DNA of 17,364 nt from a virus (IMGVR_UViG_2703718840_000006), one strand, 5' to 3'. Counted from the first letter of the stretch, positions 1 through 17,364 are shown. Notes: a model not told the origin generated them from the sequence alone. Made by a program: numbers and translations.

Positions 1-897
1 CTATGACTTGCTGTTTTCAGTAAGAGTCTTATCATCCAAAGAATTTATTCTAGAAATTCTTTTTAACTCATTAAGATAATCAACCTCGTTTTCTAAGAAC
101 CAATGAAGAACTTTAGAATTGCCAAGTAATTTATTAATATATGACTGGATTATAACGAATTTCAACATATCTGAACCATACTCGGTTTGAAGCTTTTTCG
201 TTTCTTCCGAAGTTGTTGCCATTTCTTGTTCCAGACGAAGTATGGTTTTTTTTATGTCCTTTTTATAGGGAGTGTTTTTCCCTTTATTTACTATCATCGA
301 TGCCGGTGTTGCATCCAAGATGCTCATTGCAAATTTTTTACTATAATTATCAAAATTAATCATTGTACCGACTGCTTCAATTTGGCGAATTGGCTTCATT
401 TTCCTCAAAACGTCAAATGTAGCCTTAGGTATATGTTTATCAGAAAGTTTCGCAATTACACTTGGATCTATGCCGTTCATCACATTCGCTTTATCTTTTA
501 TGGCATCAACAGATATGCCCAAAGCAGCACTAAGTTTTTCAATTGATACTTTTGCCAGAGACTTAATTATCATTCTATGTTCTTCAACTACATTTATATG
601 ATTCACTTGTTTGTTAGGAGTGAAAGCATCATCTATGCTCGAAAGTATACATGGAGCTTTTTCTATACCTAAGTCTTTTAAAGCCTCAACCCTTAAATGG
701 CCATCAAGTATCTTAGTGACATCTTTATCTTTGTCATAGAATACTATTATTGGTTCAATAATACCTAAGCTTTCGATAGAGGTAACTATTTGATGATATT
801 TATGGCTTCGCTTTACGTTTTCTAATAATTCCTTAGATGGAATTAACTTATTAGTTTCCAGGTAAATAAAATTATCGCCAAAACGTATCTGAATCAT
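1..897 (-). CDS. ParB/Srx-family protein (ParB N-terminal domain plus HTH-like region); distal gene of a tandem ParB-like pair
   Basis: 298-aa ORF with stop at 1-3. ParB-box-like GHLRVEA within IIVFYDKDKDVTKILDGHLRVEALKDLG, then an HTH-like segment (SIEKLSAALGISVDAIKDK). Start overlaps the upstream ORF by 4 nt; AGAGG lies 8 nt upstream of the ATG. No adjacent ParA. Confidence 0.6.
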   Translation of the reverse strand: MIQIRFGDNFIYLETNKLIPSKELLENVKRSHKYHQIVTSIESLGIIEPIIVFYDKDKDVTKILDGHLRVEALKDLGIEKAPCILSSIDDAFTPNKQVNHINVVEEHRMIIKSLAKVSIEKLSAALGISVDAIKDKANVMNGIDPSVIAKLSDKHIPKATFDVLRKMKPIRQIEAVGTMINFDNYSKKFAMSILDATPASMIVNKGKNTPYKKDIKKTILRLEQEMATTSEETKKLQTEYGSDMLKFVIIQSYINKLLGNSKVLHWFLENEVDYLNELKRISRINSLDDKTLTENSKS

Positions 898-1790
898 TTT
901 AATACCTCTTTGTTTACTGGGGTTAATATCTGAGATGGTAGTTCTGAAAGATTCTCTTGTTCAAGTATATGTTGAAAGCTTTTATTCATCATTATGATGT
1001 TAAAAATCTCATTTACTATTAGTAGGTTGGTTTTTATGAATTTTGAGTTGTTATAAACAGATTTATGTTCAGCGATACTATTTTCATAAAGCTCAATCAA
1101 CTCCTCTGCAGTCATCCTTTTTGATGGTTTGTGATAATAAAATCCGGCTGCTTTTGCACCTTTATTCCCAACTGTTCTTTGATTTAGAATGTGTTTTATC
1201 TTTATAATGTCCCGACTTTTTATTAATTTTTTATCATATGCTTCGGTAAGAATATCTTGTGCTTCCTCAGTTTCACATCTTGCAAATTGCACTGCGAGAT
1301 ACAGAGGCAAATTACCCCGTTCGACTGCTGAGAGAAGTTTATGCTCTCCCTTATCAAGTAGCATATTAATACTGCTCACCCAGTTCGATGAATATCCAGT
1401 AATCTCACTTATTTCGGAGTCTGAAAGTCCTCTGATTTTCATGTCTTTAATCACCTGTAATAACTCATTAGAACGTGGTCTTCTCCTTGCAATGTTTTCA
1501 ACTAAACTCATAACGTAAGCATCTTCTTCTGATACATCTCTTATAATTGCTGGAATAATAGTTTCACCTAATGCAACGAGAGCCTCTATTCTCCCTTGAC
1601 CACAAATTAAAGCATATTTGAAATCGCCTTCATCAATAGCTCTTACGCTTATTGGCTTGCTTAATCCTCTTTTTTTTATGCTTTCCTTTATTTCTTCATG
1701 CACTACCTTATTTCTTGTTCGTGGGTTAAGAAATTTTATTTTTGCAATCTCAATTTGAATTATTGGGAATTCATTTTTTTCAGGCAGCAT
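894..1790 (-). CDS. ParB-family protein (ParB N-terminal domain, HTH, C-terminal extension)
   Basis: 298 aa. Motifs GQGRIEALVALG and LVENIARRRP in the N-terminal domain, followed by an HTH-like LSDSEISEITGYSSNWVSSINMLL. GAGGG lies 7 nt upstream of the ATG; overlaps the recombinase stop by 11 nt, suggesting translational coupling. Confidence 0.65.
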   Translation of the reverse strand: MLPEKNEFPIIQIEIAKIKFLNPRTRNKVVHEEIKESIKKRGLSKPISVRAIDEGDFKYALICGQGRIEALVALGETIIPAIIRDVSEEDAYVMSLVENIARRRPRSNELLQVIKDMKIRGLSDSEISEITGYSSNWVSSINMLLDKGEHKLLSAVERGNLPLYLAVQFARCETEEAQDILTEAYDKKLIKSRDIIKIKHILNQRTVGNKGAKAAGFYYHKPSKRMTAEELIELYENSIAEHKSVYNNSKFIKTNLLIVNEIFNIIMMNKSFQHILEQENLSELPSQILTPVNKEVLK

Positions 1791-3336
1791 ATAGTTCCCT
1801 CACTTTCATGCGAGTAATAATTTGTAGAAGTTTATCAAGATTATCAAATCTATAGAGATCTAATCGAATGTTGTTTGTTTCCGTCATGCACATTTTATTA
1901 TATTCGTTTTCAATCTTTGGTATGATATAAAAATCAAGAGGTGAAATATTTTGTGAATTCATTCGTATAACAATTGTTATGTCTGCTTTCTGTGAGTTAT
2001 CAAACCGGACTTTCCATCTAAGTTTACCTGATTTCATATGTATGCATTTAGTAACAAGGACGGAAATTAAAAACTCATCATTGATGTAAAGCATTGGGGC
2101 ATATTTATACTCGTCTATATGACAGTTACTTTTTAAAATTTCACCCTTAAAATCCTCAATTATCTCTGAGTAAAATGATCTTAGTGCTTCATTTATTTTG
2201 AGATAGCTGTAATCATGTTCTGGCTTATAACCAATCAAAGTATATGCTCTTAAAAGACCACCAAATCGGGTTCTATAAACAGAAGATGAAGGGCCTGTAT
2301 CATCTTCATCAATGATAAAGCCTGATAGTTTTCCATTAGATTCTAATTTTTGTTTTAGTTTTTCTAATAGATCTTCATTAGTCAAATGAATGGATCGGAG
2401 CTGAATTATTTCTTGAGCTTTATTGTATTTTTTCTTTGAAATAATAGGTTTATATGCCTTGTCACATCTAACCCATTCATGTTTGGGGTTTTTTACAAGC
2501 CTACTTTTTAATTTAGATGAGGTTTTGTTATATATGTTGTTTCCAATATATTTTTCATTTGTCAAAATTTGATGTATTTTTGCACGAGTCCATAATGTTC
2601 CATTTTCTGCAGGTATGTTCTGTTCATTTAATCTCTCAGCAATAATGAATTCTGGGACGTTATTATCTATAAAGAGATCATATATTCTATTTACAATTTT
2701 TATTTCATTTTTTGGTCCCGGAATTAATATTACCCTATCTGTTTGAATACTCTTTCTTTTGCGGAAACTCAATATTTCTTTAGCTATGCCATTTTCGTCT
2801 ACTAAAAGACGTCTCAGCCCATAACCAGCCATACCGCCTTGATGATAACCAAGCTTTATTAAATTTACTTGCCCTATAAATACCTTTTCAGATAGATTCC
2901 TGCTGTGATATGCAGCACTAGATCTTTTTATATTCAGTATAACAGAGGACTCTAAAGGGAAATCTTTAGTGGGTATAGGTTCGGAACAATATATAAGATC
3001 TACACCATTTCTCTCAAATAGAAAGGAATAATATGCCGCTTCATCACTATTTTGAAAACGACCAAAACGGCTCACATCATAAAATAATACAGCCTGTATA
3101 TCTATTTTCTTTTGTTCTACATCGCTAAGTAACTGCTGCAAAGAATGCCTGCCTACGATACTGACTCCGCTCTTACCTGCATCATCGTAGGTATAAGCGA
3201 TTTCCATATTGTTCTTTTCAGCATAATCTTTGATATATTCGGACTGATTATGTAAAGAATATTGCTGATGGTCGGTAGACATCCTCAAGTACTGCGCGAC
3301 CCTAACTCTATGATTTTTGTCATTTTCGCTAGCCAT
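1780..3336 (-). CDS. Large serine recombinase (resolvase catalytic domain plus recombinase domain, divergent C-terminus)
   Basis: 518 aa. N-terminal YLRMSTDHQ (catalytic Ser context) and DDAGKSG; recombinase-domain-like GYHQGGMAGYGLRR. No clear CxxC zinc ribbon seen in the C-terminal ~200 aa. GAGG lies 9 nt upstream of the ATG at 3336. Confidence 0.75.
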   Translation of the reverse strand: MASENDKNHRVRVAQYLRMSTDHQQYSLHNQSEYIKDYAEKNNMEIAYTYDDAGKSGVSIVGRHSLQQLLSDVEQKKIDIQAVLFYDVSRFGRFQNSDEAAYYSFLFERNGVDLIYCSEPIPTKDFPLESSVILNIKRSSAAYHSRNLSEKVFIGQVNLIKLGYHQGGMAGYGLRRLLVDENGIAKEILSFRKRKSIQTDRVILIPGPKNEIKIVNRIYDLFIDNNVPEFIIAERLNEQNIPAENGTLWTRAKIHQILTNEKYIGNNIYNKTSSKLKSRLVKNPKHEWVRCDKAYKPIISKKKYNKAQEIIQLRSIHLTNEDLLEKLKQKLESNGKLSGFIIDEDDTGPSSSVYRTRFGGLLRAYTLIGYKPEHDYSYLKINEALRSFYSEIIEDFKGEILKSNCHIDEYKYAPMLYINDEFLISVLVTKCIHMKSGKLRWKVRFDNSQKADITIVIRMNSQNISPLDFYIIPKIENEYNKMCMTETNNIRLDLYRFDNLDKLLQIITRMKVRELYAA

Positions 3337-3506
3337 GCACGAAACCTCATGGATGATTCAATACAATGTAGTGGATAAAATTGATCAAATTTCAACCGAA
3401 TTCAACTGTTTTATCATTGATTAGAGCGAATTTGGTAGATCTTCGAGGTGTATGATAATCGAGAAGAGATGTGAATTATTTAGCTGATATGACCGACAGC
3501 TTTCGT

Positions 3507-3556
3507 TATGTGGACTCAATGTCCCCATTTGTAAATGGCTATGCTTAGTCCACATA
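3507..3556. repeat. Nested inverted repeat (10-bp arms TATGTGGACT/AGTCCACATA around an inner CCATTT-GT-AAATGG palindrome)
   Basis: Read directly: perfect 10-bp arms at 3507-3516 and 3547-3556, inner palindrome at 3525-3538. Lies between the integrase stop and the recombinase start. Candidate protein-binding or recombination site; no U-tract, so not a canonical terminator. Confidence 0.4.
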
Positions 3557-3618
3557 GGTTAATGGTGTGATTATTAATTCTTTAACTAAATCAAGATAGT
3601 TAATCCATCATGGGAGAG

Positions 3619-4848
3619 TTATGCGGCAATAACTTTGCATTTTTGAGACGAAACATAGTCACTCCACCATTGCATGAGAACCACCCGTTCAGTGAGATAC
3701 TCTGCACGATTGTAGGCTGCAATTATTTCATCTTTCTTCGAGTGGGCAAGGGCGGCTTCTAAGACATCAGTCCTAAACTTGCCAGACTCCTCAGCAGCCG
3801 TTCTAGCAATGGATCGCATACCGTGAGCTACAAGCTCACCTCCGAAACCCATACGGATTATGGCCGCATTAGCTGTTTGTTCATGCATGTGATTGAGTGG
3901 AGCTTTGATACTGGGGAACACCCACTCTCTATGCCCGCTGATGACTTTCATTAAATCCAAAACTCGCAAAGCTTCTTTGCTCAGTGGAACTTTGTGAGGC
4001 TTCTTCATTTTCATAAACTCCGCCGGGATGTTCCACATGCCAGTTTCAATATCAATATCTGACCATCTTGTGCGAACAGCTTCACCTGGGCGAACCCATG
4101 TGAGAAGTTGCCACTCAATCAGTAGCCTTGTTTCCAAACGGATAGAAGCATTGTTTAGAGCAACCAAGAAGCGAGGGAGTTCGGAAGGGGGTAATGCTGG
4201 CATATTCTGTTTTTTTGGCTTGCTGAACCGTTGCCCCAGGTTGTCTGCCGGGTTGAATTCTATGAGTTCTTCTGTTGCTGCATAGCGGAAAATTTCATTC
4301 AGGCGGGATATGATGCGGCGAAGTGTTTCAAGGACACCTCGTTTTTCTATGGGTTCTAAATGCTGTTTAAGCATTTTAGGGCGAATCTCCTTAATTGGGG
4401 TATCACCCAATGTGGAAAAGATATTTCTCTCTAGGCTTCGCCAGATGTCGTTAGCATGATCTTGGGAGATGCCTGACGTTTTGACTTTCTCATCAAGCCA
4501 CTTCTTGGCTACTGCTTGAAATGTATGTTCCGTGGCATCTTTCAGTGCATTGGCTTTTTGGTTGTTATGAACTTGGGGGTCTATACCATTTGTAAGCAAC
4601 GACAAGTATTCATCACGTAAAGCTCGTGCCTTCGCAAGTGTAAGGTGAGGATAGGTTCCTAAGCTCACCTTAGTTCGCTTTTTGGTCACAGGCACTGCAT
4701 ATCTGAAATACCAATTTTTCTTCCCTCCCTTCGCCAGGGGAGCGATTCGCAACAGCAAACCATCGCCGTCAAAAAGGTTAACCTCTTTTTCGGCAGGTTT
4801 GGTGCTTTTGATTTCAGTGTCAGTGAGCTTCTTAGCGATTTTGGCCAT
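3619..4848 (-). CDS. P4-type tyrosine integrase (arm-binding N-terminal domain plus catalytic domain)
   Basis: Start chosen at the internal ATG (4846-4848, MAKIAKKLTDTEIK) with GAGGG upstream; the track ORF extends to 4929 with a non-canonical start. N-terminal KLTDTEIKSTKP...LFDGDGLLL...WYFRY is typical of P4-like integrases; C-terminal HGMRS and AAYNRAEY supply the HxxR and catalytic Tyr. Lies immediately downstream of the ssrA 3' fragment, same orientation. Confidence 0.85.
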   Translation of the reverse strand: MAKIAKKLTDTEIKSTKPAEKEVNLFDGDGLLLRIAPLAKGGKKNWYFRYAVPVTKKRTKVSLGTYPHLTLAKARALRDEYLSLLTNGIDPQVHNNQKANALKDATEHTFQAVAKKWLDEKVKTSGISQDHANDIWRSLERNIFSTLGDTPIKEIRPKMLKQHLEPIEKRGVLETLRRIISRLNEIFRYAATEELIEFNPADNLGQRFSKPKKQNMPALPPSELPRFLVALNNASIRLETRLLIEWQLLTWVRPGEAVRTRWSDIDIETGMWNIPAEFMKMKKPHKVPLSKEALRVLDLMKVISGHREWVFPSIKAPLNHMHEQTANAAIIRMGFGGELVAHGMRSIARTAAEESGKFRTDVLEAALAHSKKDEIIAAYNRAEYLTERVVLMQWWSDYVSSQKCKVIAA

Positions 4849-5014
4849 GTTTGGGACCCTCGATTTTAGGACCCATCTTCGTGGGTCCCATTCAGGGTGC
4901 CATAACTCGTAGTTCTCAGCAATTCTCACTAGACTACAATAGACGTAAAAAAGCCCGCAGAGCTTGTGCTGTGCGGGCTTAGTAGACTTTACTGAACTTC
5001 AGTACATCAATATT

Positions 5015-5119: not shown

Positions 5120-6019
5120 TTATGTCTGGATGTGGTCGTCAACACATCCTCTTTTAAATATAGGCGCTTTTACCTTAGTTGGATCATCTGTTTTAAAGAT
5201 TTTCAATCGTTCACTGAAGAACATTACCTCAGATCCTTTGTACCGATCTTGAGCACTGTAGTTTATTCCATATACTAATGATGATGTCTTATACATAGCT
5301 TGGATCTCAGGAGTGTTATCGTAAGAAACAATCCAAGGCGTTTTAATATTATTCTGTACGACTTTTGCAACCCTAACATGATCATCATGATCATAATGGT
5401 TGATATATAAACCTTTACCTTTTATGTAATAAGGTGGATCCAAATATGTTAATGAGTTTTGTGGCAATTGAATAACTATTTTTTTTATGAAATCAATTGC
5501 ATCCATGTTATATAAATCTATTCTGTGACGATTTTCTGATATTTTATGGATTCGAGAAATCAAATCACTCTTATTATAGCGAGCGTCAAGCTTCCATTTC
5601 CCTTCTTGATTTTTACCGCCAATTACACCACCTTTTAATATTCCAGAACGATTTGTTCTATTGAGAAAAAAGGTTGAGAAACCAATTGTTAAAAGATCAT
5701 GGTCTTTAGGATTATTAATTATATCTTTCTGCCTAAACCATTCATCCATTGTAACTTCTGTTCTTTCAATTAAAGAACATAATTGATCTGCATGATTTAA
5801 TACACTGTGCCAAAAAGCATAAACAGAAATATTAATATCATTAAGGATGATTTTTTCAGCTGCATTTAGATGTAACAGTTTCAATGCTAAACCAGCACCC
5901 CCAGCATATGGTTCGGCATAATGTATAGGCGAAAGATTATTTTCTTCAATAATCCGAAGCATGAAATTTGCAAGCTTGCCTTTACCGCCAGGATAGCGAA
6001 GTGGGGTGTTAAAACGCAT
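5120..6019 (-). CDS. Dam-family (D12 class) N6-adenine DNA methyltransferase
   Basis: 299 aa. Motifs in Dam order: LRYPGGKGK, YAEPYAGGAGLA (AdoMet-binding), FFLNRTNRSG, YLDPPYY (catalytic DPPY). GAGG lies 6 nt upstream of the ATG at 6019. Target sequence cannot be read from sequence. Confidence 0.85.
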   Translation of the reverse strand: MRFNTPLRYPGGKGKLANFMLRIIEENNLSPIHYAEPYAGGAGLALKLLHLNAAEKIILNDINISVYAFWHSVLNHADQLCSLIERTEVTMDEWFRQKDIINNPKDHDLLTIGFSTFFLNRTNRSGILKGGVIGGKNQEGKWKLDARYNKSDLISRIHKISENRHRIDLYNMDAIDFIKKIVIQLPQNSLTYLDPPYYIKGKGLYINHYDHDDHVRVAKVVQNNIKTPWIVSYDNTPEIQAMYKTSSLVYGINYSAQDRYKGSEVMFFSERLKIFKTDDPTKVKAPIFKRGCVDDHIQT

Positions 6020-6053
6020 ATGATACCTCTAAATGTCAGATCTAAAGTATATC

Positions 6054-6092
6054 AAAAAAAGGGCTTTATGGCCATCACATAAAACCCTTTTT
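6054..6092. terminator. Bidirectional intrinsic-terminator-like hairpin between the ATPase and methyltransferase genes
   Basis: A7 (6054-6060), stem GGGCTTTATG / CATAAAACCC (one mismatch) with 7-nt loop (6061-6087), then T5 (6088-6092). On the minus strand the hairpin is followed by a U7 run. Confidence 0.45.
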
Positions 6093-6098
6093 AATCAA

Positions 6099-7832
6099 TT
6101 AGTTATCTGACAGATATGATGAGATGGTAGCAGAATCGACACCATGTCCACTTATCATAATAACTTTAAGACTCTTTATTAGTTCATTCTTGAAGCTATC
6201 CGATTGCACAGGATTTTTCTCGACCCAATATCGATATGGGTTATCTTTAACTCGTCCTTTGACTTGGTCCTGAAATTGAGTCGTATGTGCAAAATCTTTA
6301 AACAGTTTTCTCACTCTCCCGCCATGATTTTTGTTAACTTTTTTATAATTATCTATAAGGATTTTTAAATCAATCGGAGCGTTACCAATCTTTAGCGTTG
6401 TAATTATGTCTTTAGCTGTTTTCATAAAAACAGATTTTGTAAATTTATTTTTATTTTCCCAATATGCATCATCAGGTGGTAAATTATATAAAAACTCAAA
6501 AATCATTTGGTCTGGAGGTAAGGTGCTTGGAAGCAAACATAAGTTTTTTTCTTTTTTGGCTTTTTTTGCATTAGCACTGTTGTCGTGAACAACATCACCG
6601 TCTAAGACGATCAAGCTTTTAGCTGTAAATTCTGGTATTTTTCTTGCCATTAAGTCAAGCATGGCAGAGCAGCTAATATTTATATTTCCTAATGGATTTA
6701 ATATTTTATTTATTTTTCGATCTGTTATCAATTGTTTGAAAAAGTCGAAACCTTCTTTGTCTTCAAAATATACATTTGCTTTTGGAAGACAAATGTCATC
6801 ATTAATTTTTACAGTTTCAACATGTAAATCAGCGTGGATATCTGTCCATGAAAGATTATTCTTTGTTTTAATATCTCCATATGTGTCTGTAAGATATATT
6901 GTTTTAAAGCTATCACTATCTTGTTTTGAACGATTATAGATATCCTCTATTATTAATGGAGAGTGCGAGGTCATGATTATTTGCAGATCGTATTGTTTTG
7001 CTGCTTTAGTTAGAATATTAATTAGCTCTAACTGTGCAGCAGGGAAAAGACCTGCATCGGCTTCATCAATTAACAATATTCCGCCATGATAATCAGAATA
7101 AGTTTCCTTCAATCTTTTAAATGAAAAAATTGCTTGGATTAATTGTCCAACATTATCTTCACCAACAGATACTGATTGGTGATCATAATTGTCACCATGG
7201 ACAACCATTGAATCGATAGTACCTTTTGTTGCTGTTACTGAGCTTCCATTGTTTTTTAGTAAGAGTTGGTTACTCATCATTCTGATTTCATCAGAATTTT
7301 CATTGATGTACTGAACATCCCGTGTTGAGTAATCAGTCCTTAATGTAATAGGAAGAAGTCGTGCTAAGCTTAAAAAAATAACAGGATGAGTAACGTTTCT
7401 ACTTTGGTTTTTTTCCGGTATTGAATCATTTCCCCTGACTACAGGCCTTGATTTATCTCTGTCACTGTAGCTGTATAAACCTAATGTTAGTTTTTCAAGA
7501 TGTTTGTTCGATGCACCATCATAGACACTAATTTTGACGTCCATTGAACCAGGAACATCAAATTGTTCTGAAAGCCTAAAATGTTCGCTGAAAGCTGACT
7601 TGAAGCTGCCATTTGTTAATGTTTTATATTGTGTTAAATCAGTCTCAGGGTTTTTGGTAAAGTCCTTTGTAAAGCTAAATATTTGGGCGATAATGCCAAG
7701 AATTGTGGATTTAGATGTGCCATTTTTACCACAAATAACAGTTAGGCGAGAACCAAACTCGATGTTTATATTTTTCAGTCCGCGAAACTTCACAACATTT
7801 ATATTTTTTAGTTTGGTAATTTGATTTGCCAT
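6099..7832 (-). CDS. ABC/SMC-type ATPase with TOPRIM-like C-terminal region (OLD-family or fused PARIS-like nuclease candidate)
   Basis: Walker A GKNGTSKST, Walker B ILLIDEAD, H-loop IMTSHSP. The C-terminal ~250 aa contain FEDKEG and LDGD acidic motifs about 55 residues apart, consistent with TOPRIM (not verified). Start placed at internal ATG 7832 (MANQITKLKNI; GGAG upstream; Walker A then sits at the usual distance); the track ORF starts at 7883 with no SD. Confidence 0.7.
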   Translation of the reverse strand: MANQITKLKNINVVKFRGLKNINIEFGSRLTVICGKNGTSKSTILGIIAQIFSFTKDFTKNPETDLTQYKTLTNGSFKSAFSEHFRLSEQFDVPGSMDVKISVYDGASNKHLEKLTLGLYSYSDRDKSRPVVRGNDSIPEKNQSRNVTHPVIFLSLARLLPITLRTDYSTRDVQYINENSDEIRMMSNQLLLKNNGSSVTATKGTIDSMVVHGDNYDHQSVSVGEDNVGQLIQAIFSFKRLKETYSDYHGGILLIDEADAGLFPAAQLELINILTKAAKQYDLQIIMTSHSPLIIEDIYNRSKQDSDSFKTIYLTDTYGDIKTKNNLSWTDIHADLHVETVKINDDICLPKANVYFEDKEGFDFFKQLITDRKINKILNPLGNINISCSAMLDLMARKIPEFTAKSLIVLDGDVVHDNSANAKKAKKEKNLCLLPSTLPPDQMIFEFLYNLPPDDAYWENKNKFTKSVFMKTAKDIITTLKIGNAPIDLKILIDNYKKVNKNHGGRVRKLFKDFAHTTQFQDQVKGRVKDNPYRYWVEKNPVQSDSFKNELIKSLKVIMISGHGVDSATISSYLSDN

Positions 7833-7890
7833 GTTTGTATCTTGCTCCGTAAAATGGCCACAAATTGTGGCCAATAGTTTCATGCTTGGA

Positions 7891-9057
7891 TTATATTGTT
7901 ATCTTCTTCAAGCTTGTTTGTCCATCATATTCCTTCAGATATGAGCCATAGTGCCTGAAAAGCATCTCCGGTCCTTTATGCCCCATTTGAGCTGCAAGCC
8001 AAAACAGGTTTGCTCCTCGGCTGATATGGCTGGTGGCGAATGTATGCCTGGTTTGATATGGATTTCTGTATCGAATACCTGCTTTCCGCAATGTTGGAAC
8101 CCATGCTTTTTTCCTGATTGCATCAGCACTTGCCCAAGGCTTATTGGTCTTTGGGTCTTCAAAGACAGTAGCATCCTTCATGAATGTAAATGGCTTCTGA
8201 TTTATCAGCGCCAACATTGCTTCTTCTGTCAGTTCAACTTTACGAGTACCTGCTTTTGTCTTTGTCCCTTTGATAACACCGACAACACTTGCGCTCTGGA
8301 CATGGGCAGTTTTTCCAACAAAGTCGATATCACGCCATCGAAGGGCACATAATTCAGAACTACGCAGGCCTGTATGTATAGCGAACCGGAACAGATTCTC
8401 CCATTGTTTGTTTCCGGCTGCTGCTAGTAATGCATCAACTTCTGCTGGTGATAGCGGATCAACCACGTAGCTGCTTTCTGCTTCTGACTTATCACTTTGG
8501 TAGCGCGAAGCAGTTACCAACGATACGGGGTTAATTTGAAGTACCCCATCGGTTACGGCTTCATCAAGTGCTGACCGCAGGAAAGATAACTGGTTGCGAA
8601 TTGTTTTTAAGGTCGTTTTCTGGCTTTGAATCCACGCTTTCAGGATTGCTGGTGTTAATTCACTTGCAGGGCAAATGTGGAGTGAGGCTAACGCACTACG
8701 GCATTTTTTATAACCACCAATCGTTGAGGGTGAGAGTTTTCTCGTTTCGCAGATTTCAAGGTATTCGTCCAAGTACATTTTTACCGTTTTGCCTGCAGCA
8801 GCATTACCAAAAATTTTCAAACGAGCAGAACGGGGAAAATATTCCGCATAAATGAATGTTCCCCTTTCGATCTTATTATGAATTTCGCCGAGTGTGCGCT
8901 CGGCGTATTTAATGTTCTTTGGTGTTACTTCCAGATTGGAAAGAGGCTCACGACATTTAACTCCTTTATAGGTGAAAGTTATATTGATCGTTTCGCCCTG
9001 GCGGTGTTTCCTGATTGTTACGCCGCGCGGTAGTTTGAGCAGTTTTGTCTGGCCCAT
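7891..9057 (-). CDS. int: Lambdoid-type tyrosine integrase
   Basis: 388 aa. C-terminal catalytic signature QTRHTFATSH...GH...RHYGSY. Preceded by an overlapping excisionase-like gene. Transcribed toward the ssrA-derived att side, as in lambda. Confidence 0.85.
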   Translation of the reverse strand: MGQTKLLKLPRGVTIRKHRQGETINITFTYKGVKCREPLSNLEVTPKNIKYAERTLGEIHNKIERGTFIYAEYFPRSARLKIFGNAAAGKTVKMYLDEYLEICETRKLSPSTIGGYKKCRSALASLHICPASELTPAILKAWIQSQKTTLKTIRNQLSFLRSALDEAVTDGVLQINPVSLVTASRYQSDKSEAESSYVVDPLSPAEVDALLAAAGNKQWENLFRFAIHTGLRSSELCALRWRDIDFVGKTAHVQSASVVGVIKGTKTKAGTRKVELTEEAMLALINQKPFTFMKDATVFEDPKTNKPWASADAIRKKAWVPTLRKAGIRYRNPYQTRHTFATSHISRGANLFWLAAQMGHKGPEMLFRHYGSYLKEYDGQTSLKKITI

Positions 9058-13256: not shown

Positions 13257-13394
13257 ATGCAATCACCATTACGGAATGTGCGTAAAGCGCACGGATTTAC
13301 TTTGCAGCATGTTGCTGCGGGCGTTCAGGTCAATCCAGCGACGCTGAGTCGTATTGAAAGACAGGAACAAATTCCATCTACCGTCCATGAATGA
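13257..13394 (+). CDS. cro: Cro-like HTH protein, C-terminally truncated by a deletion junction
   Basis: 45-aa ORF not in the supplied track (too short). HTH_XRE-like segment FTLQHVAAGVQVNPATLSRIERQEQ. The ORF ends abruptly where lambda-G-like sequence begins. Confidence 0.55.
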   Translation: MQSPLRNVRKAHGFTLQHVAAGVQVNPATLSRIERQEQIPSTVHE

Positions 13395-13581
13395 AGCCGT
13401 TAAACAGATTGAGCAGGAAGTGCTTACCACCTGGCCCACGGAGGCAATTTCTCATGCTGAAAACGTGGTGTACCGGCTGTCTGGTATGTATGAGTTTGTG
13501 GTGAATGATGCCCCTGAACAGGCAGAGGACGCCGGGCCTGCAGAGCCTGTTTCTGCGGGAAAGTGTTCGACGGTGAGCTGA
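13387..13581 (+). pseudogene. G: Remnant of tail assembly chaperone G (C-terminal part only), fused to the truncated cro region
   Basis: Translation PSMNEAVKQIEQEVLTTWPTEAISHAENVVYRLSGMYEFVV...PVSAGKCSTVS matches my recollection of the lambda gpG C-terminus. ATG at 13387 overlaps the cro stop (ATGAATGA); no SD. N-terminal half of G is absent. Confidence 0.6.
13557..13563 (+). other. Programmed -1 frameshift slippery heptamer G GGA AAG (G-T frameshift site)
   Basis: GGGAAAG in the lambda X XXY YYZ register relative to the G-fragment frame (GCG GGA AAG). The downstream T-like ORF is in the -1 frame and overlaps by 19 nt. Confidence 0.6.
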
Positions 13582-13997
13582 GTTTTGCCCTGAAACTGGC
13601 GCGCGAGATGGGGCGACCCGACTGGCGTGCCATGCTTGCCGGGATGTCATCCACGGAGTATGCCGACTGGCACCGCTTTTACAGTACCCATTATTTTCAT
13701 GATGTTCTGCTGGATATGCACTTTTCCGGGCTGACGTACACCGTGCTCAGCCTGTTTTTCAGCGATCCGGATATGCATCCGCTGGATTTCAGTCTGCTGA
13801 ACCGGCGCGAGGCTGACGAAGAGCCTGAAGATGATGTGCTGATGCAGAAAGCGGCAGGGCTTGCCGGAGGCGTTCGTTTTGGCCCGGACGGGAATGAAGT
13901 TATCCCCGCTTCCCCGGATGTGGCGGACATGACGGAGGATGACGTAATGCTGATGACAGTATCAGAAGGGATCGCAGGAGGAGTCCGGTATGGCTGA
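13563..13997 (+). CDS. T: T portion of the tail assembly chaperone G-T frameshift product
   Basis: ORF in the -1 frame relative to the G fragment with no ATG of its own (track start is GTG). Sequence (FDGELSFALKLAREMGRPDWRAMLAGMSSTEYADW...GVRYG) matches my recollection of lambda gpT. Its stop overlaps an ATG GCT GAA CCG GTA (MAEPV) H-like start. Confidence 0.6.
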   Translation: MFDGELSFALKLAREMGRPDWRAMLAGMSSTEYADWHRFYSTHYFHDVLLDMHFSGLTYTVLSLFFSDPDMHPLDFSLLNRREADEEPEDDVLMQKAAGLAGGVRFGPDGNEVIPASPDVADMTEDDVMLMTVSEGIAGGVRYG

Positions 13998-14031
13998 ACC
14001 GGTACCCGGTGGTAATGGCTGCAGGGGCTGA
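13990..14031 (+). pseudogene. H: Five-codon remnant of the tape-measure gene H start (MAEPV) followed by out-of-context sequence and a stop
   Basis: ATG overlapping the T stop encodes MAEPV (lambda H begins MAEPVGDL in my recollection), then PGGNGCRG and a stop. Implies a deletion junction near 14005. Confidence 0.4.
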
Positions 14032-14239
14032 CTCAGGGCAGTGGGACGTTATGACATGGAGTGATGCTGATAATCAGCAGGTGAAACTGTCGATGACGGA
14101 ACTGGAGGAGCTGGCTGCAGCTATGGCGCAGGCGCAGGTTGATCGCAATAATGAGATTTATCGTCATCAGCGTGAAATGAAAGAGGAACTGAGCAATCTC
14201 CTGGATTTGAAGCAGGTTAGGGAGTTCAGTCCAGAATAA
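14009..14239 (+). CDS. Hypothetical ORF or gene fragment in the tail-fibre region (no ATG start, possibly a remnant)
   Basis: 76-aa track ORF with a non-ATG start, downstream of the H deletion junction. Helical-looking sequence with no recognised motif. May be the 3' end of a deleted gene. Confidence 0.3.
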   Translation: MVMAAGADSGQWDVMTWSDADNQQVKLSMTELEELAAAMAQAQVDRNNEIYRHQREMKEELSNLLDLKQVREFSPE

Positions 14240-14332
14240 GAAAAAACGTAGTACATCGTATTCAAGAGGATCTATGCTGGCATCGTAGCTGTTTTTAAAC
14301 AGTAAGTAGCCGTTGAAGGTCACAGGGGAAAA

Positions 14333-14695
14333 ATGCTCTTTGACTTGGCTTCCGGGGACGCACTATTTATCTCTGAACCAGGCCCATTAGCGGAAAATGT
14401 CACCTGGTTGTCGCCGGAAGGGGAATATCAGAAGTGGAACGGTACAGCCTGGGTGAAAGATGCAGAAGCAGAAAAACTATTCCGGATCCGGGAGGCGGAA
14501 GAAACAAAAAACAGCCTGATGCAGGTAGCCAGTGAGCATATAGCGCCGCTTCAGGATGCTGTAGATCTGGAGATCGCAACGGAGGAAGAAAATTCGTTGC
14601 TGGAAGCCTGGAAAAAGTATCGGGTGTTGCTGAACCGTGTTGATACATCAACTGCACCTGATATTGAGTGGCCGATAATTCCTGTAACATCATAG
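14333..14695 (+). CDS. tfa: Tail fibre assembly protein (lambda Tfa family, short form)
   Basis: 120 aa; ATG with AGGGGA upstream. Sequence [14 protein letters not shown]...[19 protein letters not shown]...[25 protein letters not shown] closely matches my recollection of the lambda Tfa C-terminal two-thirds. Confidence 0.8.
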
Positions 14696-14712: not shown

Positions 14713-14743
14713 TGCTGACATGTTGTATACGACAACGTGTCAG
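14713..14743. terminator. 13-bp inverted repeat hairpin between convergent tfa and the HEPN gene (possible bidirectional terminator)
   Basis: GCTGACATGTTGT / ACAACGTGTCAGC arms (one G-T position) with a 5-nt loop. Flanking U-tracts are weak on both strands. Confidence 0.35.
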
Positions 14744-14807
14744 CAGTTTGACTGGTATTATAACGAATATATTGTAATGTTTTCTGGTGTTATTAATTGT
14801 TGTTTTA

Positions 14808-15761
14808 TTACCATATATCTATGGGTTTTGTTTTCTGCTCATCTAAACAAAATGCACAGATGTAAGCCCCCTTACTTCGGTTGTACTGAACCGTTTCTAA
14901 AGCAGAGTCAAGATGTTTACTATCAAAGTTCCAGCTTTTTTCCATAACAGAAACACATTTTCTGCAATAGAAACTTTCTTTTGAGTTAGTATCTCCTGAA
15001 TCATTTTTAGTGTAGCCAAAGAATTTTTTTGCTGATTCCTTTGAACATGCGGAAATGGCTGCAGTGAACTCATAATGAGTTTGAAGCATAGCCCATACAA
15101 TACCTGAAAATTCTTCATCCTCGTCTTCATCTAATCCTATATTAATGCCGCCAGAGGAATGTATTGCTTTATATTTATACCTATGCCATATCCAGTGTGC
15201 TGATTCAGTATTTAGATAGTTGTGAGCACGTACAACTGATGTGAAAATTAGCTCTGGCATTATATCTGTTTTTTTATCAACCGTATGCATAAAACGATTT
15301 CTTAGAATGCGCATACTATTAAACCAAGTAATAAAGTCATCAGGCAGTGATTTAGAGGCGAAAGTATTATATACTTTAATTAAATCTTGGGCGTCTAATG
15401 TGTGGAAGTCTGAAAATGAAATGTTACCTTCACTATCAGGTTTAGGTGTATTGCGAGTTGCATTCGTGATAAGTAGATAAGGTGATATTTCGACGATAAG
15501 TCCTTTTAGTCTGAATTCAATGGATTGAAGTATCAAATTAAAAGATGTAATCAATTTGGGTCTAGCAAATAACCAATAATGCTCTAAATTTTTAATATCT
15601 GATTCTGTATAGAATTCAGACGTTTTACAATAACTATTCCAAAGGTTTATATCTCTGTAATCATAAGCTAAATCGGCAATTTTTTCCCAAGCCTCATTTA
15701 CCATGTGGTCAGCCATTGTATAAAAATCAGTCTTTGTTGGAATGTCAGTTATCATTATCAA
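14808..15761 (-). CDS. HEPN-motif protein, Abi_2 (AbiD/AbiF)-like, with C-terminal CxxC...CxxC zinc ribbon
   Basis: 317 aa, AT-rich. Mid-protein ILRNRFMH matches the HEPN Rx4H motif and the Abi_2 RN..AH context. C-terminal CRKC-(28 aa)-CAFC. Own AT-rich upstream region. Confidence 0.5.
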   Translation of the reverse strand: MIMITDIPTKTDFYTMADHMVNEAWEKIADLAYDYRDINLWNSYCKTSEFYTESDIKNLEHYWLFARPKLITSFNLILQSIEFRLKGLIVEISPYLLITNATRNTPKPDSEGNISFSDFHTLDAQDLIKVYNTFASKSLPDDFITWFNSMRILRNRFMHTVDKKTDIMPELIFTSVVRAHNYLNTESAHWIWHRYKYKAIHSSGGINIGLDEDEDEEFSGIVWAMLQTHYEFTAAISACSKESAKKFFGYTKNDSGDTNSKESFYCRKCVSVMEKSWNFDSKHLDSALETVQYNRSKGAYICAFCLDEQKTKPIDIW

Positions 15762-15992
15762 TCTACCTTTGGGTCTTTATTGTTGTCTATCAAGATATAA
15801 TATTCAGGCTGGAGTGGCTAATGTTGATCTACTTATTTTCTCCCGGTAAGTCAGTTTATCGCGATATAAGCCGCATTTGATTTTGGCGACTATGGTCGTG
15901 TTAGGTATGTATCTGGCGTGTTACTGCGCCAGATTAAATATAAACCAATAATATTAAAGGGTGTTACTCTCTTGACAGATTTAGGGAACAAA

Positions 15993-16187
15993 TCACTCGT
16001 CAGCTGACTCCCAAGTATCTTTCAGAGTTTCCTGAACAAAAGTTTTAGCTGAATCTTTATCGGCGGTGCGCCTAACAGAAAAACCATCGTTGCTGGTGGC
16101 TTTTACGATCATCTCCACATCGTCATAATGCTCGCCAATGTATTGGGTTAATTCTTCCTTTAATGCGTCTACAGCGCCGTTTGGCAT
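15993..16187 (-). CDS. DinI-family protein (short form)
   Basis: 64 aa. [13 protein letters not shown] and the C-terminal TWESADE match the DinI pattern (AIDALAGEL...ETWESADDWF, from memory). In-frame stop 7 codons upstream excludes a longer form. Two LexA boxes upstream. Confidence 0.75.
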
Positions 16188-16531: not shown

Positions 16532-16900
16532 TTAAATATTTAGCAGATCCTCTACAATATCATTAAACCCAGATGCCTGTTTAGATACAGAATTGAATAA
16601 GTCTCTAAGTGCTTGTGTTTGCTCAAAAGTTTCCCAAAGTGTTTTATAACTTGGCGTTACAATTGCTAATACTAAGCCTTCCGCCCATGACCATTCATGT
16701 TCATCAAAATAGTAGCGATATTTTCTGCTGTATATAACAAAATCCTTTTCCTTATATTTAGCATGAAACACAACTTGAATTATATCCTGTGTACCATTAA
16801 CAAGGTTTTCAGGCGCATCAATTGCCATCCAATTTATCATTTTTTGGACAGTTAACTTATTTAATGAAACAATTAGCTTTGTGGTTTTATCGTTATGCAT
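16532..16900 (-). CDS. Hypothetical protein, second gene of a coupled two-gene operon
   Basis: 122-aa ORF; ATG 2 nt after the stop of the upstream ORF. AT-rich. No recognisable motif. Confidence 0.5.
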   Translation of the reverse strand: MHNDKTTKLIVSLNKLTVQKMINWMAIDAPENLVNGTQDIIQVVFHAKYKEKDFVIYSRKYRYYFDEHEWSWAEGLVLAIVTPSYKTLWETFEQTQALRDLFNSVSKQASGFNDIVEDLLNI

Positions 16901-16902
16901 AA

Positions 16903-17364
16903 TTAGTCCAGTTGCATATCTTTCACAATTTCGTTAACTCTTGAGTTGAGTATACTCAACTTCTCATAGAGCTTCCAGGCTTGGTCTTGGTCATTGATAT
17001 TAATGGAGATTTCTTTTCTTCGAAAGATTCCTTTGGGTTTGACTTCATCAAAAAATATATCAATCTTTGAGCGTTCCTTGGTTGGAAGCCTGCTGAAAAG
17101 GCTTTCAGTTAGCACTGCACACTCAGTAAACTCCTTACGTATAAATTCTTTCTGAGTAACCCAGTCTCCAATAGCATCATTTATCAATGAGGCTTTTTTT
17201 TGAAGATTGCTATGGATTTCAGGTATTCGAACCTTGTTTCTGAGAGTGGCCTTCAATGAACGCGTCGTAAAAAAAAGTTTTACAGTTACAACAAAACCGA
17301 CAATACCCGCTAGGGAGGATATGTCAGTTACCGTCTGTGATAGGGGCCAAGTCAGGATATCCAT
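16903..17364 (-). CDS. Hypothetical membrane-anchored protein (N-terminal TM helix); 5' end at the window edge, may be partial
   Basis: 153-aa ORF whose ATG is the last three bases of the window. Hydrophobic segment ISSLAGIVGFVVTVKLFF near the N-terminus, then a charged soluble domain. Confidence 0.45.
   Translation of the reverse strand: MDILTWPLSQTVTDISSLAGIVGFVVTVKLFFTTRSLKATLRNKVRIPEIHSNLQKKASLINDAIGDWVTQKEFIRKEFTECAVLTESLFSRLPTKERSKIDIFFDEVKPKGIFRRKEISININDQDQAWKLYEKLSILNSRVNEIVKDMQLD

Follow-up and report, generated by a model that had tools for sequence, protein, structure and literature searches.

What does an AT-rich gene at the end of a decayed lambdoid prophage of E. coli encode, and whom does it serve? 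The question arises in a stretch of 17,364 nt from the virus IMGVR_UViG_2703718840_000006 (the window; all coordinates are counted from its first letter), in which an earlier note had singled out an open reading frame (ORF) of 317 amino acids (aa) at 14808-15761 and described its product as an Abi-like protein with a HEPN-type motif and a C-terminal zinc ribbon. The answer favoured here, and judged moderately probable, is that this ORF (the target) is an uncatalogued phage-carried immunity gene, encoding a single-gene HEPN ribonuclease (RNase) with one Cys4 zinc module. The evidence that carries this reading is the conservation of the motif residues and a specific remote homology to HEC-08 (Hma-embedded candidate 8), a protein of E. 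coli ECOR52 (WP_150698383.1; PADLOC PDLC04162). In published tests HEC-08 gave fewer plaques of some coliphages, an effect that was gone when its motif His, H128, was mutated (Payne et al., bioRxiv 10.1101/2024.01.29.577857).

The gene and its reading frame

The ORF is present where it had been reported, on the minus strand and with a TTG start, and can be read in two ways:

14808..15761, minus strand: target ORF, 317 aa read from TTG (ORF list)
14808..15755, minus strand: target coding sequence for the predicted HEPN and zinc-module protein, 315 aa from ATG; RefSeq 948-nt coding sequence, WP_000627053.1
14808-14810, minus strand: target stop codon, TAA

RefSeq (WP_000627053.1, 315 aa) and all homologs start at the ATG at 15755, the homologs opening with MI(T/I)DIP, and the alternative TTG start at 15761 makes the target two residues longer. 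The ATG, two codons past the TTG, is probably the start. Residue numbers below follow the 317-aa frame, which is also that of the structure model; the 315-aa numbering is lower by 2.

The AT-richness that had been remarked on is evident (GC 0.34; GC at third codon positions 0.27), and the GC of the target and its orthologs stays at 0.31-0.37 irrespective of host genomic composition. Salmonella, Proteus, Leclercia, Pectobacterium and Acinetobacter all have unbroken orthologs; across six genera the reading frame contains no internal stop, and dN/dS between orthologs is 0.07-0.24 in the comparisons with unsaturated dS. The target is a real gene under constraint, horizontally mobile and stand-alone.

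Motifs and their conservation

Four features of the predicted protein matter for its assignment:

15213..15734, minus strand: predicted HEPN domain, residues ~10-183 (317-aa numbering)
15285..15302, minus strand: catalytic-type motif R154-N155-R-F-M-H159 (Rx4H), from conservation and alignment with HEC-08 H128
15516..15518, minus strand: Glu82 in helix 2 (QSIEFRLKG), from conservation and alignment with HEC-08 E56
14847..14966, minus strand: putative C-terminal zinc-binding module (zinc-ribbon-like), C266-x2-C269 ... C302-x2-C305, from sequence and conservation

The mid-protein segment ILRNRFMH named in the earlier note occupies residues 152-159, with the Rx4H running from R154 to H159. Both members of the C-terminal Cys pair given there as CxxC-28-CxxC were found, as CRKC at 266-269 and CAFC at 302-305, but the spacer between them is 32 residues, not 28. 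Chance expectation was estimated from 20,000 composition-preserving shuffles of the target, of which 30% contained Rx4H and 65% Rx4-6H, compared with 2% for RNxxxH and 0.01% for a paired CxxC-10..40-CxxC. Because it is so common among shuffles, the bare Rx4H motif is weak evidence; judged from the alignments, the real support for the motif is its conservation, and RxxxxH alone would mean little.

Conservation was followed in an alignment of 27 homologs with identity down to 46% (A1) and in one of 60 relatives with 22-66% identity to the query (A2). R151, R154, N155, M158, H159 and all four Cys residues are unchanged throughout A1, where E82 and many N-terminal residues are likewise invariant. 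Among the more diverse sequences of A2 there are nine invariant columns in total, four of them in R..RN...H and two in the first CxxC, and both the second CxxC and E82 are conserved at >=90%. The Rx4H is thus preceded by an invariant R151, which gives the family signature RxxRNxxxH, and 186 of 189 family sequences carry this extended form, R..RN...H. E82 would be the conserved acidic residue expected beside a HEPN active site, and the Cys4 module presumably binds metal.

Most distant members of the family in A2 carry an extra C-terminal Cys cluster, with the consensus ...CxxC...VxRxxCxxxxCxxNV...CLxC, which brings them to 3-4 CxxC pairs. In the enterobacterial and Acinetobacter branch, which includes the target, the protein stops after the first Cys4 module. 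Since the extra cluster occurs in only part of the family, the number of zinc modules varies within it, and not just in comparison with HEC-08.

Remote homology to HEC-08

The tested HEC-08 sequence was taken from the supplement of the paper describing it, and HEC-08 was represented by an alignment of 35 sequences (A3). Pairwise BLASTP of the target against HEC-08 was not significant (E 0.14), yet the best segment nonetheless aligned both motifs. With the A2 profile, hhalign gave E 1e-4 against the single HEC-08 sequence, and A2 against A3 gave 95.5% probability and E 1.3e-8 over 213 collinear columns, a span that runs from helix 2 (QSIEFRLK on TAVEILLK) through RNxxxH and into the first Cys4 module. 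In the BLASTP segment and in both hhalign runs the target's H159 (H157 in the 315-aa numbering) falls on HEC-08 H128, and E82 aligns with the invariant E56 of HEC-08 (TAVEILLK). Sixteen sequences of the Ishtar family, another group of HEPN proteins, served as a negative control and gave 0.8% and E 0.07 against A2 and nothing against HEC-08; the HEC-08 link is therefore specific. By these sequence comparisons the target is a distant HEC-08 relative, through specific remote homology and shared architecture.

The Ishtar control bears on a rival explanation as well, in which the target would be an anti-plasmid or inter-element effector that degrades RNAs on which incoming plasmids depend (replication primers, for example) and would not act on phages. 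Ishtar (ist1/ist2) of Acinetobacter baumannii is a monogenic anti-plasmid HEPN system that clears the plasmid RP4, and it is found beside defence genes, in integrons and in P4 satellites (bioRxiv 10.64898/2026.07.06.735840). Like the target it is a single-gene HEPN protein, and its C-terminal domain is uncharacterised; one branch of the target's family is found in Acinetobacter, and the occurrence of the family on 13 conjugative plasmids makes inter-plasmid competition plausible. The similarity is only that of generic HEPN proteins, as the hhalign values show, Ishtar lacks a Cys4 module, and six peptides that are diagnostic of the target's family were all missing from the Ishtar homolog tables. 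Identity with Ishtar was rejected on the hhalign result and the absence of these peptides, and the nearest tested relative, HEC-08, was assayed against phages. An Ishtar-like role for the target is accordingly regarded as unlikely.

Many RefSeq entries of the HEC-08 family (~366-aa HEPN plus zinc ribbon) carry the misleading name 'hsdR', probably a carry-over from the surrounding type I restriction-modification (R-M) loci.

Predicted structure

An AlphaFold2 model of the target, built from the 27-sequence alignment, is confident (pLDDT 88.1, pTM 0.86), with pLDDT 77-94 in the region of the Cys4 module. Its four helices span residues 10-47, 67-92, 141-159 and 169-183, and the insert between helices 2 and 3 (residues 93-140) consists of short strands and a helix at 124-134. 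Helix 3 ends in R154-H159, and E82 belongs to helix 2. The earlier note had tied the HEPN assignment to a four-helix core and to conservation of the RxxxxH residues; a four-helix core is present in the predicted model, and across the homologs compared the residues are essentially invariant. We consider it very probable that the target is a HEPN-fold protein. HEPN nucleases are generally dimeric, and the activity characteristic of the superfamily is that of a metal-independent endoribonuclease.

A Foldseek search with the model found nothing significant in PDB (best E 0.14) or BFVD (best E 0.24), which limits the structural case. The best structural matches include HepT-type toxins of MNT-HEPN pairs (5yep_B, 7ae2_A and 8xdj_A). 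The sole match in a profile search of PDB sequences, to the TRIM31 RING (E 2.6), was dismissed as spurious.

An unrecognised family

Scans of the target against Pfam, PADLOC and NCBIfam at E <= 10 returned zero families. PHROGs gave no match at E <= 0.001, tblastn against 50,697 phage genomes gave none, and no literature was found on the RefSeq accession WP_000627053.1. When the 60 relatives were scanned one by one, weak single-relative matches appeared to PADLOC DUF3644 (17/60), to the PADLOC hidden Markov model (HMM) for HEC-08, PDLC04162 (16/60, all distant relatives; best E 1.9e-5), and to Pfam HEPN_Swt1, PF18731 (5/60 at E <= 0.01; best 9.1e-5), none of which the target itself matches. 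The Swt1 matches may reflect superfamily-level kinship at most.

These scans also decide the standing of the Abi-like label in the earlier note, by which the target would be a classic Abi_2 protein of the AbiD/AbiF type. The two have an RNxxxH-type HEPN motif in common, and the Swt1 HEPN that five of the 60 relatives weakly match is placed in the same group as Abi2 in the 2013 HEPN classification (PMC3710099). But no Abi model in Pfam or PADLOC was matched, either by the target at E <= 10 or by the 60 relatives at E <= 0.01, and the architecture with a Cys4 tail fits HEC-08 instead. Abi_2 membership is thus extremely improbable and the label was dropped, whereas the suspicion voiced alongside it, that the zinc ribbon might mark a HEPN family distinct from Abi_2, is borne out by the missing Abi matches and by HEC-08 as the specific relative.

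The family is widely scattered. A word-indexed search returned 40 close clusters, and an exhaustive profile search of clusters at the 50% identity level returned 597 at E <= 1e-3 and 469 at E <= 1e-10. A scan of ~185,000 species-representative genomes with A1 found 55 loci, scattered among Gamma-, Beta-, Alpha- and Deltaproteobacteria, Cyanobacteria, Chloroflexi, Chlorobi, Planctomycetes, Bacillota, Coriobacteriia, Verrucomicrobia and Spirochaetes. Within E. coli the target occurs in 15 of 5,426 complete genomes, in nearly identical copies. The target's family is a separate, sizeable branch that is recognised by no annotation or defence-finding resource.

Genomic setting

The prophage genes around the target are the following:

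13563..13997: minor tail protein T gene fragment
14009..14239: tail-fibre C-terminal fragment
14333..14695, plus strand: truncated tail-fibre assembly gene (tfa), C-terminal two thirds; Pfam Caudo_TAP E 2e-42, phrog_105 positions 87-203 of 239
15993..16187, minus strand: DinI-like remnant upstream of the target; Pfam DinI E 9e-14, phrog_189, frameshifted pseudogene in RefSeq
16532..16900 and 16903..17364, minus strand: two AT-rich small genes beside ssrA (hyp122, 122 aa, and hyp153, 153 aa; 2-bp gap)

As had been described, the target is convergent with tfa, here a truncated copy; an unbroken tfa (585 nt) is found in E. coli HS and in strain UK_Dog_Liverpool. In the latter the same DNA forms the right end of a lambdoid prophage at ssrA, with the order int, yfdRQP, cI/cro, replication and Q genes, lysis genes, tail fibre and tfa, followed past tfa by the target in convergent orientation, the DinI-like pseudogene, two small hypothetical genes and ssrA. 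The prophage of E. coli HS is a more decayed version. A 44.6-kb circular record, NZ_CP148393.1 (pZ1323HEC0010-3), was deposited as a non-mobilizable plasmid, yet it carries J, lom, tail fibre, tfa, target, two small genes, three more genes and int in that order, together with yfdPQR, and evidently looks like the circular or excised genome of this lambdoid phage, not a plasmid. By this gene order the target occupies the region that corresponds to the non-essential b region of lambda, and since hyp122 and hyp153 travel with the circular genome they too are phage cargo; neither matched anything in Pfam, PADLOC or PHROGs.

The prophage in the window is a mosaic remnant, in which the close match to the intact phage is picked up again only from 14311 onwards and the target is intact. 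From 13381 to 14310 there is no high-identity match to the intact phage. Replication, lysis and nearly all structural genes have been lost, with deletions between cro and the end of the tail fibre.

Homologs elsewhere have varied homes. The Proteus homolog stands directly after a prophage integrase, and that of Acinetobacter in a prophage early region with early and replication genes on the same strand. The Pectobacterium homolog occupies a small islet adjoining fis-dusB, with a P4-like integrase beside it in one strain, the Salmonella homolog adjoins EcoRII/Dcm on a conjugative element, and the Leclercia homolog adjoins an AAA_15/AAA_23 ATPase. Plasmid homologs, in 19 records of which 13 are conjugative, include some on large plasmids near VapBC.

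Such carriers allow a further rival to be weighed, that the target serves the temperate phage's own cycle as an RNA-processing or regulatory factor, cutting or binding host or phage transcripts. As genuine phage cargo it moves with the circular phage genome, and the company of the Acinetobacter homolog would suit such a role. The position within prophages varies, though, from the b region to a place beside the integrase to the early region; homologs are equally often outside phages, on plasmids and chromosomal islets; and a gene for the phage life cycle would not be expected to be missing from 50,697 phage genomes and from PHROGs. A role in the phage cycle is considered decidedly unlikely.

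Further elements lie at the other end of the window:

1..897 and 894..1790, minus strand: two tandem ParB-like genes, the first with a weak match to the N-terminus of a type II methyltransferase model
1780..3336, minus strand: 518-aa serine recombinase
3619..4929, minus strand: integrase-like gene
5120..6019, minus strand: 299-aa Dam-like methyltransferase; PADLOC PD-Lambda-5_B, full length, E 6e-124
6099..7883, minus strand: 594-aa AAA ATPase; PtuA/GajA/AriA-type models only, partial, E ~1e-20
7891..9057: prophage integrase, with the methyltransferase/ATPase pair just beyond it

The pair at 5120..7883 is probably a second defence locus in the same ssrA hotspot, although PD-Lambda-5_A was not among the top 25 matches of the ATPase. 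The region 1..4929 appears to belong to a further integrative element, stacked alongside the prophage.

Neighbours and local signals

A survey of 53 loci from the species-genome scan, taking the nearest ORF on each side (101 proteins) for Pfam and PADLOC scans, found no recurrent partner among these neighbours, no Pfam or PADLOC family occurring in more than two. Some are defence genes (HEC-01A/B, GajA/AriA-type ATPases, PDC-S21, mad3, NACHT-associated domains and a KAP NTPase) and many others are housekeeping genes, so that an association of the target's family with defence genes is suggestive. The check for a neighbouring antitoxin or partner proposed in the earlier note came out negative in these 101 neighbours and in eight upstream regions. 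In the E. coli, Pectobacterium, Acinetobacter, Salmonella, Proteus, Leclercia and plasmid contexts the gene has neither an MNT gene nor any other antitoxin gene beside it, and no small upstream ORF is conserved across eight homologous loci, the 42-aa upstream ORFs called in Salmonella and Leclercia being mutually unrelated. The E. coli neighbours themselves (DinI remnant, hyp122 and hyp153) are absent from all other target contexts.

These observations bear most directly on the possibility that the target is a solo toxin or addiction module, a growth-arresting HEPN RNase that stabilises a prophage or plasmid and is controlled within the protein or by a host factor. The HepT-type toxins among the best structural matches, the persistence of an intact target in a heavily decayed prophage and the presence of the family on large plasmids near VapBC would all fit. 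Against this stand the lack of an adjacent antitoxin, of a recurrent neighbour and of a conserved small upstream ORF, together with the difficulty of maintaining an unneutralised toxin. The motif also differs: it reads RNRFMHTV in the target, with a family consensus of xV after the His and no conserved Tyr, in place of the HepT RX4HXY. Identity with a HepT/MNT toxin-antitoxin system was ruled out by the missing MNT gene and HxY motif, and an addiction role of the more general kind is improbable, about to the same degree as the anti-plasmid role.

Two local features flank the target:

15756..15992, minus strand: upstream intergenic region, 237 bp, AT-rich, with AAAGG 10 nt before the ATG; presumed promoter and ribosome-binding site
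14713..14745, no strand assigned: hairpin with a 13-bp stem between the convergent stop codons (RNA folding)

A promoter scan near the target gave a single, weak sigma-70-like match (15789-15760), and such matches were no more numerous than in shuffles. The consensus terminator scan called none beside the target; it passes over the hairpin because the latter has no canonical U-tract. The hairpin sits in a 112-nt spacer and is unusually stable (z = -3.95 on the minus strand and -3.14 on the plus strand; 0/200 shuffles as stable), and it may be a transcript-end structure shared by the two genes.

A model for the proposed immunity gene

Under the preferred reading, that of a phage-carried immunity gene, the target would be cargo of a lambdoid temperate phage integrated at ssrA, carried in the non-essential interval that separates the tail-fibre genes from the attachment site, and this one gene would protect the lysogen, as in the remote homolog HEC-08. 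The protein might be made constitutively and held inactive until another phage infects or another mobile element enters. The HEPN site (R154, N155 and H159, aided by E82), probably in a homodimer, would then cut RNA and thereby block replication of the invader, with the C-terminal region and its zinc module acting as a nucleic-acid-binding or trigger-sensing part. RNase activity, dimerisation, zinc binding, sensing and defence are all predicted properties of the target. The outcome could be abortive infection, a wording that is itself our interpretation, or selective RNA targeting.

A bolder version, which we entertain only tentatively and think rather doubtful, would make the target the founding example of a separate uncurated immune family of ~600 clusters (50% identity) in >10 phyla, absent from Pfam, NCBIfam, PADLOC and PHROGs. 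Its members would be minimal HEPN RNases under the control of an N-terminal extension peculiar to the family and of one zinc module that senses the invader directly. Temperate phages and conjugative plasmids would use them to fight rival elements, and both their triggers and their RNA targets would be unlike those of HEC-08.

If an immune function is true, several hundred clusters that are now 'hypothetical protein' and unseen by defence-finding tools would join single-gene RNase immunity. The target would be a compact HEC-08 relative with one zinc module, useful for learning how zinc-ribbon tails control HEPN nucleases, and would offer a concrete case from the lambdoid b region of a gene that stays intact while the surrounding prophage decays. 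Current ideas would stand, as HEPN nucleases are already familiar players in bacterial immunity.

Comparison with known systems

Among Pfam HEPN models, the Swt1-like one (PF18731) is the only one that the family reaches, with few and weak matches. Abi_2 proteins (AbiD/AbiD1/AbiF, PF07751) resemble the target as single-protein HEPN systems on mobile elements with an RN..H-type motif, but they have no zinc ribbon, and their model is matched neither by the target nor by its 60 relatives. HepT of the MNT-HEPN pairs (DUF86; SO_3166, PDB 5YEP) is a protein of ~130 aa with an MNT antitoxin partner and RX4HXY, whereas the target has 315 aa, no partner, HTV from the His onwards and a zinc module. Ishtar shares an N-terminal HEPN domain (DUF4145/DUF3644-type) followed by an uncharacterised C-terminal domain, as well as a patchy, mobile-element-linked distribution; it differs in size (160-260 aa), in its RNxxEHxY motif, in a beta-rich C-terminus without a Cys4 module and in a phenotype of plasmid clearance.

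Closer in architecture is the DUF3644/EC042_2821 family, HEPN proteins fused to zinc ribbons in R-M operons, with a conserved Rx4-6H (Anantharaman et al. 2013, PMC3710099). The target is likewise a zinc-ribbon-fused HEPN protein with such a motif, and 17/60 of its relatives match the PADLOC DUF3644 model; the target itself matches no DUF3644 model and, going by the published description, is without the winged helix-turn-helix and restriction-endonuclease-fold domains of the prototype.

The comparison with HEC-08 shows both differences and likenesses. The target does not match the HEC-08 HMM (PADLOC, E <= 10), has one Cys4 module (2 CxxC, the family mostly 2-4) where HEC-08 has about four (8 CxxC, ~18 Cys), and carries its motif His at 157/159 instead of 128. 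Its conserved N-terminal ~75 residues (MIxDIPTKxDF...NEAWEK) are unaligned. HEC-08 sits inside Hma or type I R-M loci, whereas the target lies in a prophage b region and its homologs are solo, on plasmids, in islets or among varied neighbours. Yet both are single genes with an N-terminal HEPN domain and then one or more C-terminal Cys4 zinc-ribbon-like modules; the extended motif RxxRNRxxH and the helix-2 Glu are common to both, and neither has a Pfam match in the current release. HEC-08 was reported to be structurally nearest to SO_3166 (bioRxiv 10.1101/2024.01.29.577857), and this HepT toxin is the best PDB analogue of the target as well. Single-protein HEPN nucleases with a zinc-ribbon tail in defence are a kind of system that HEC-08 and the 2013 HEPN census had already made known.
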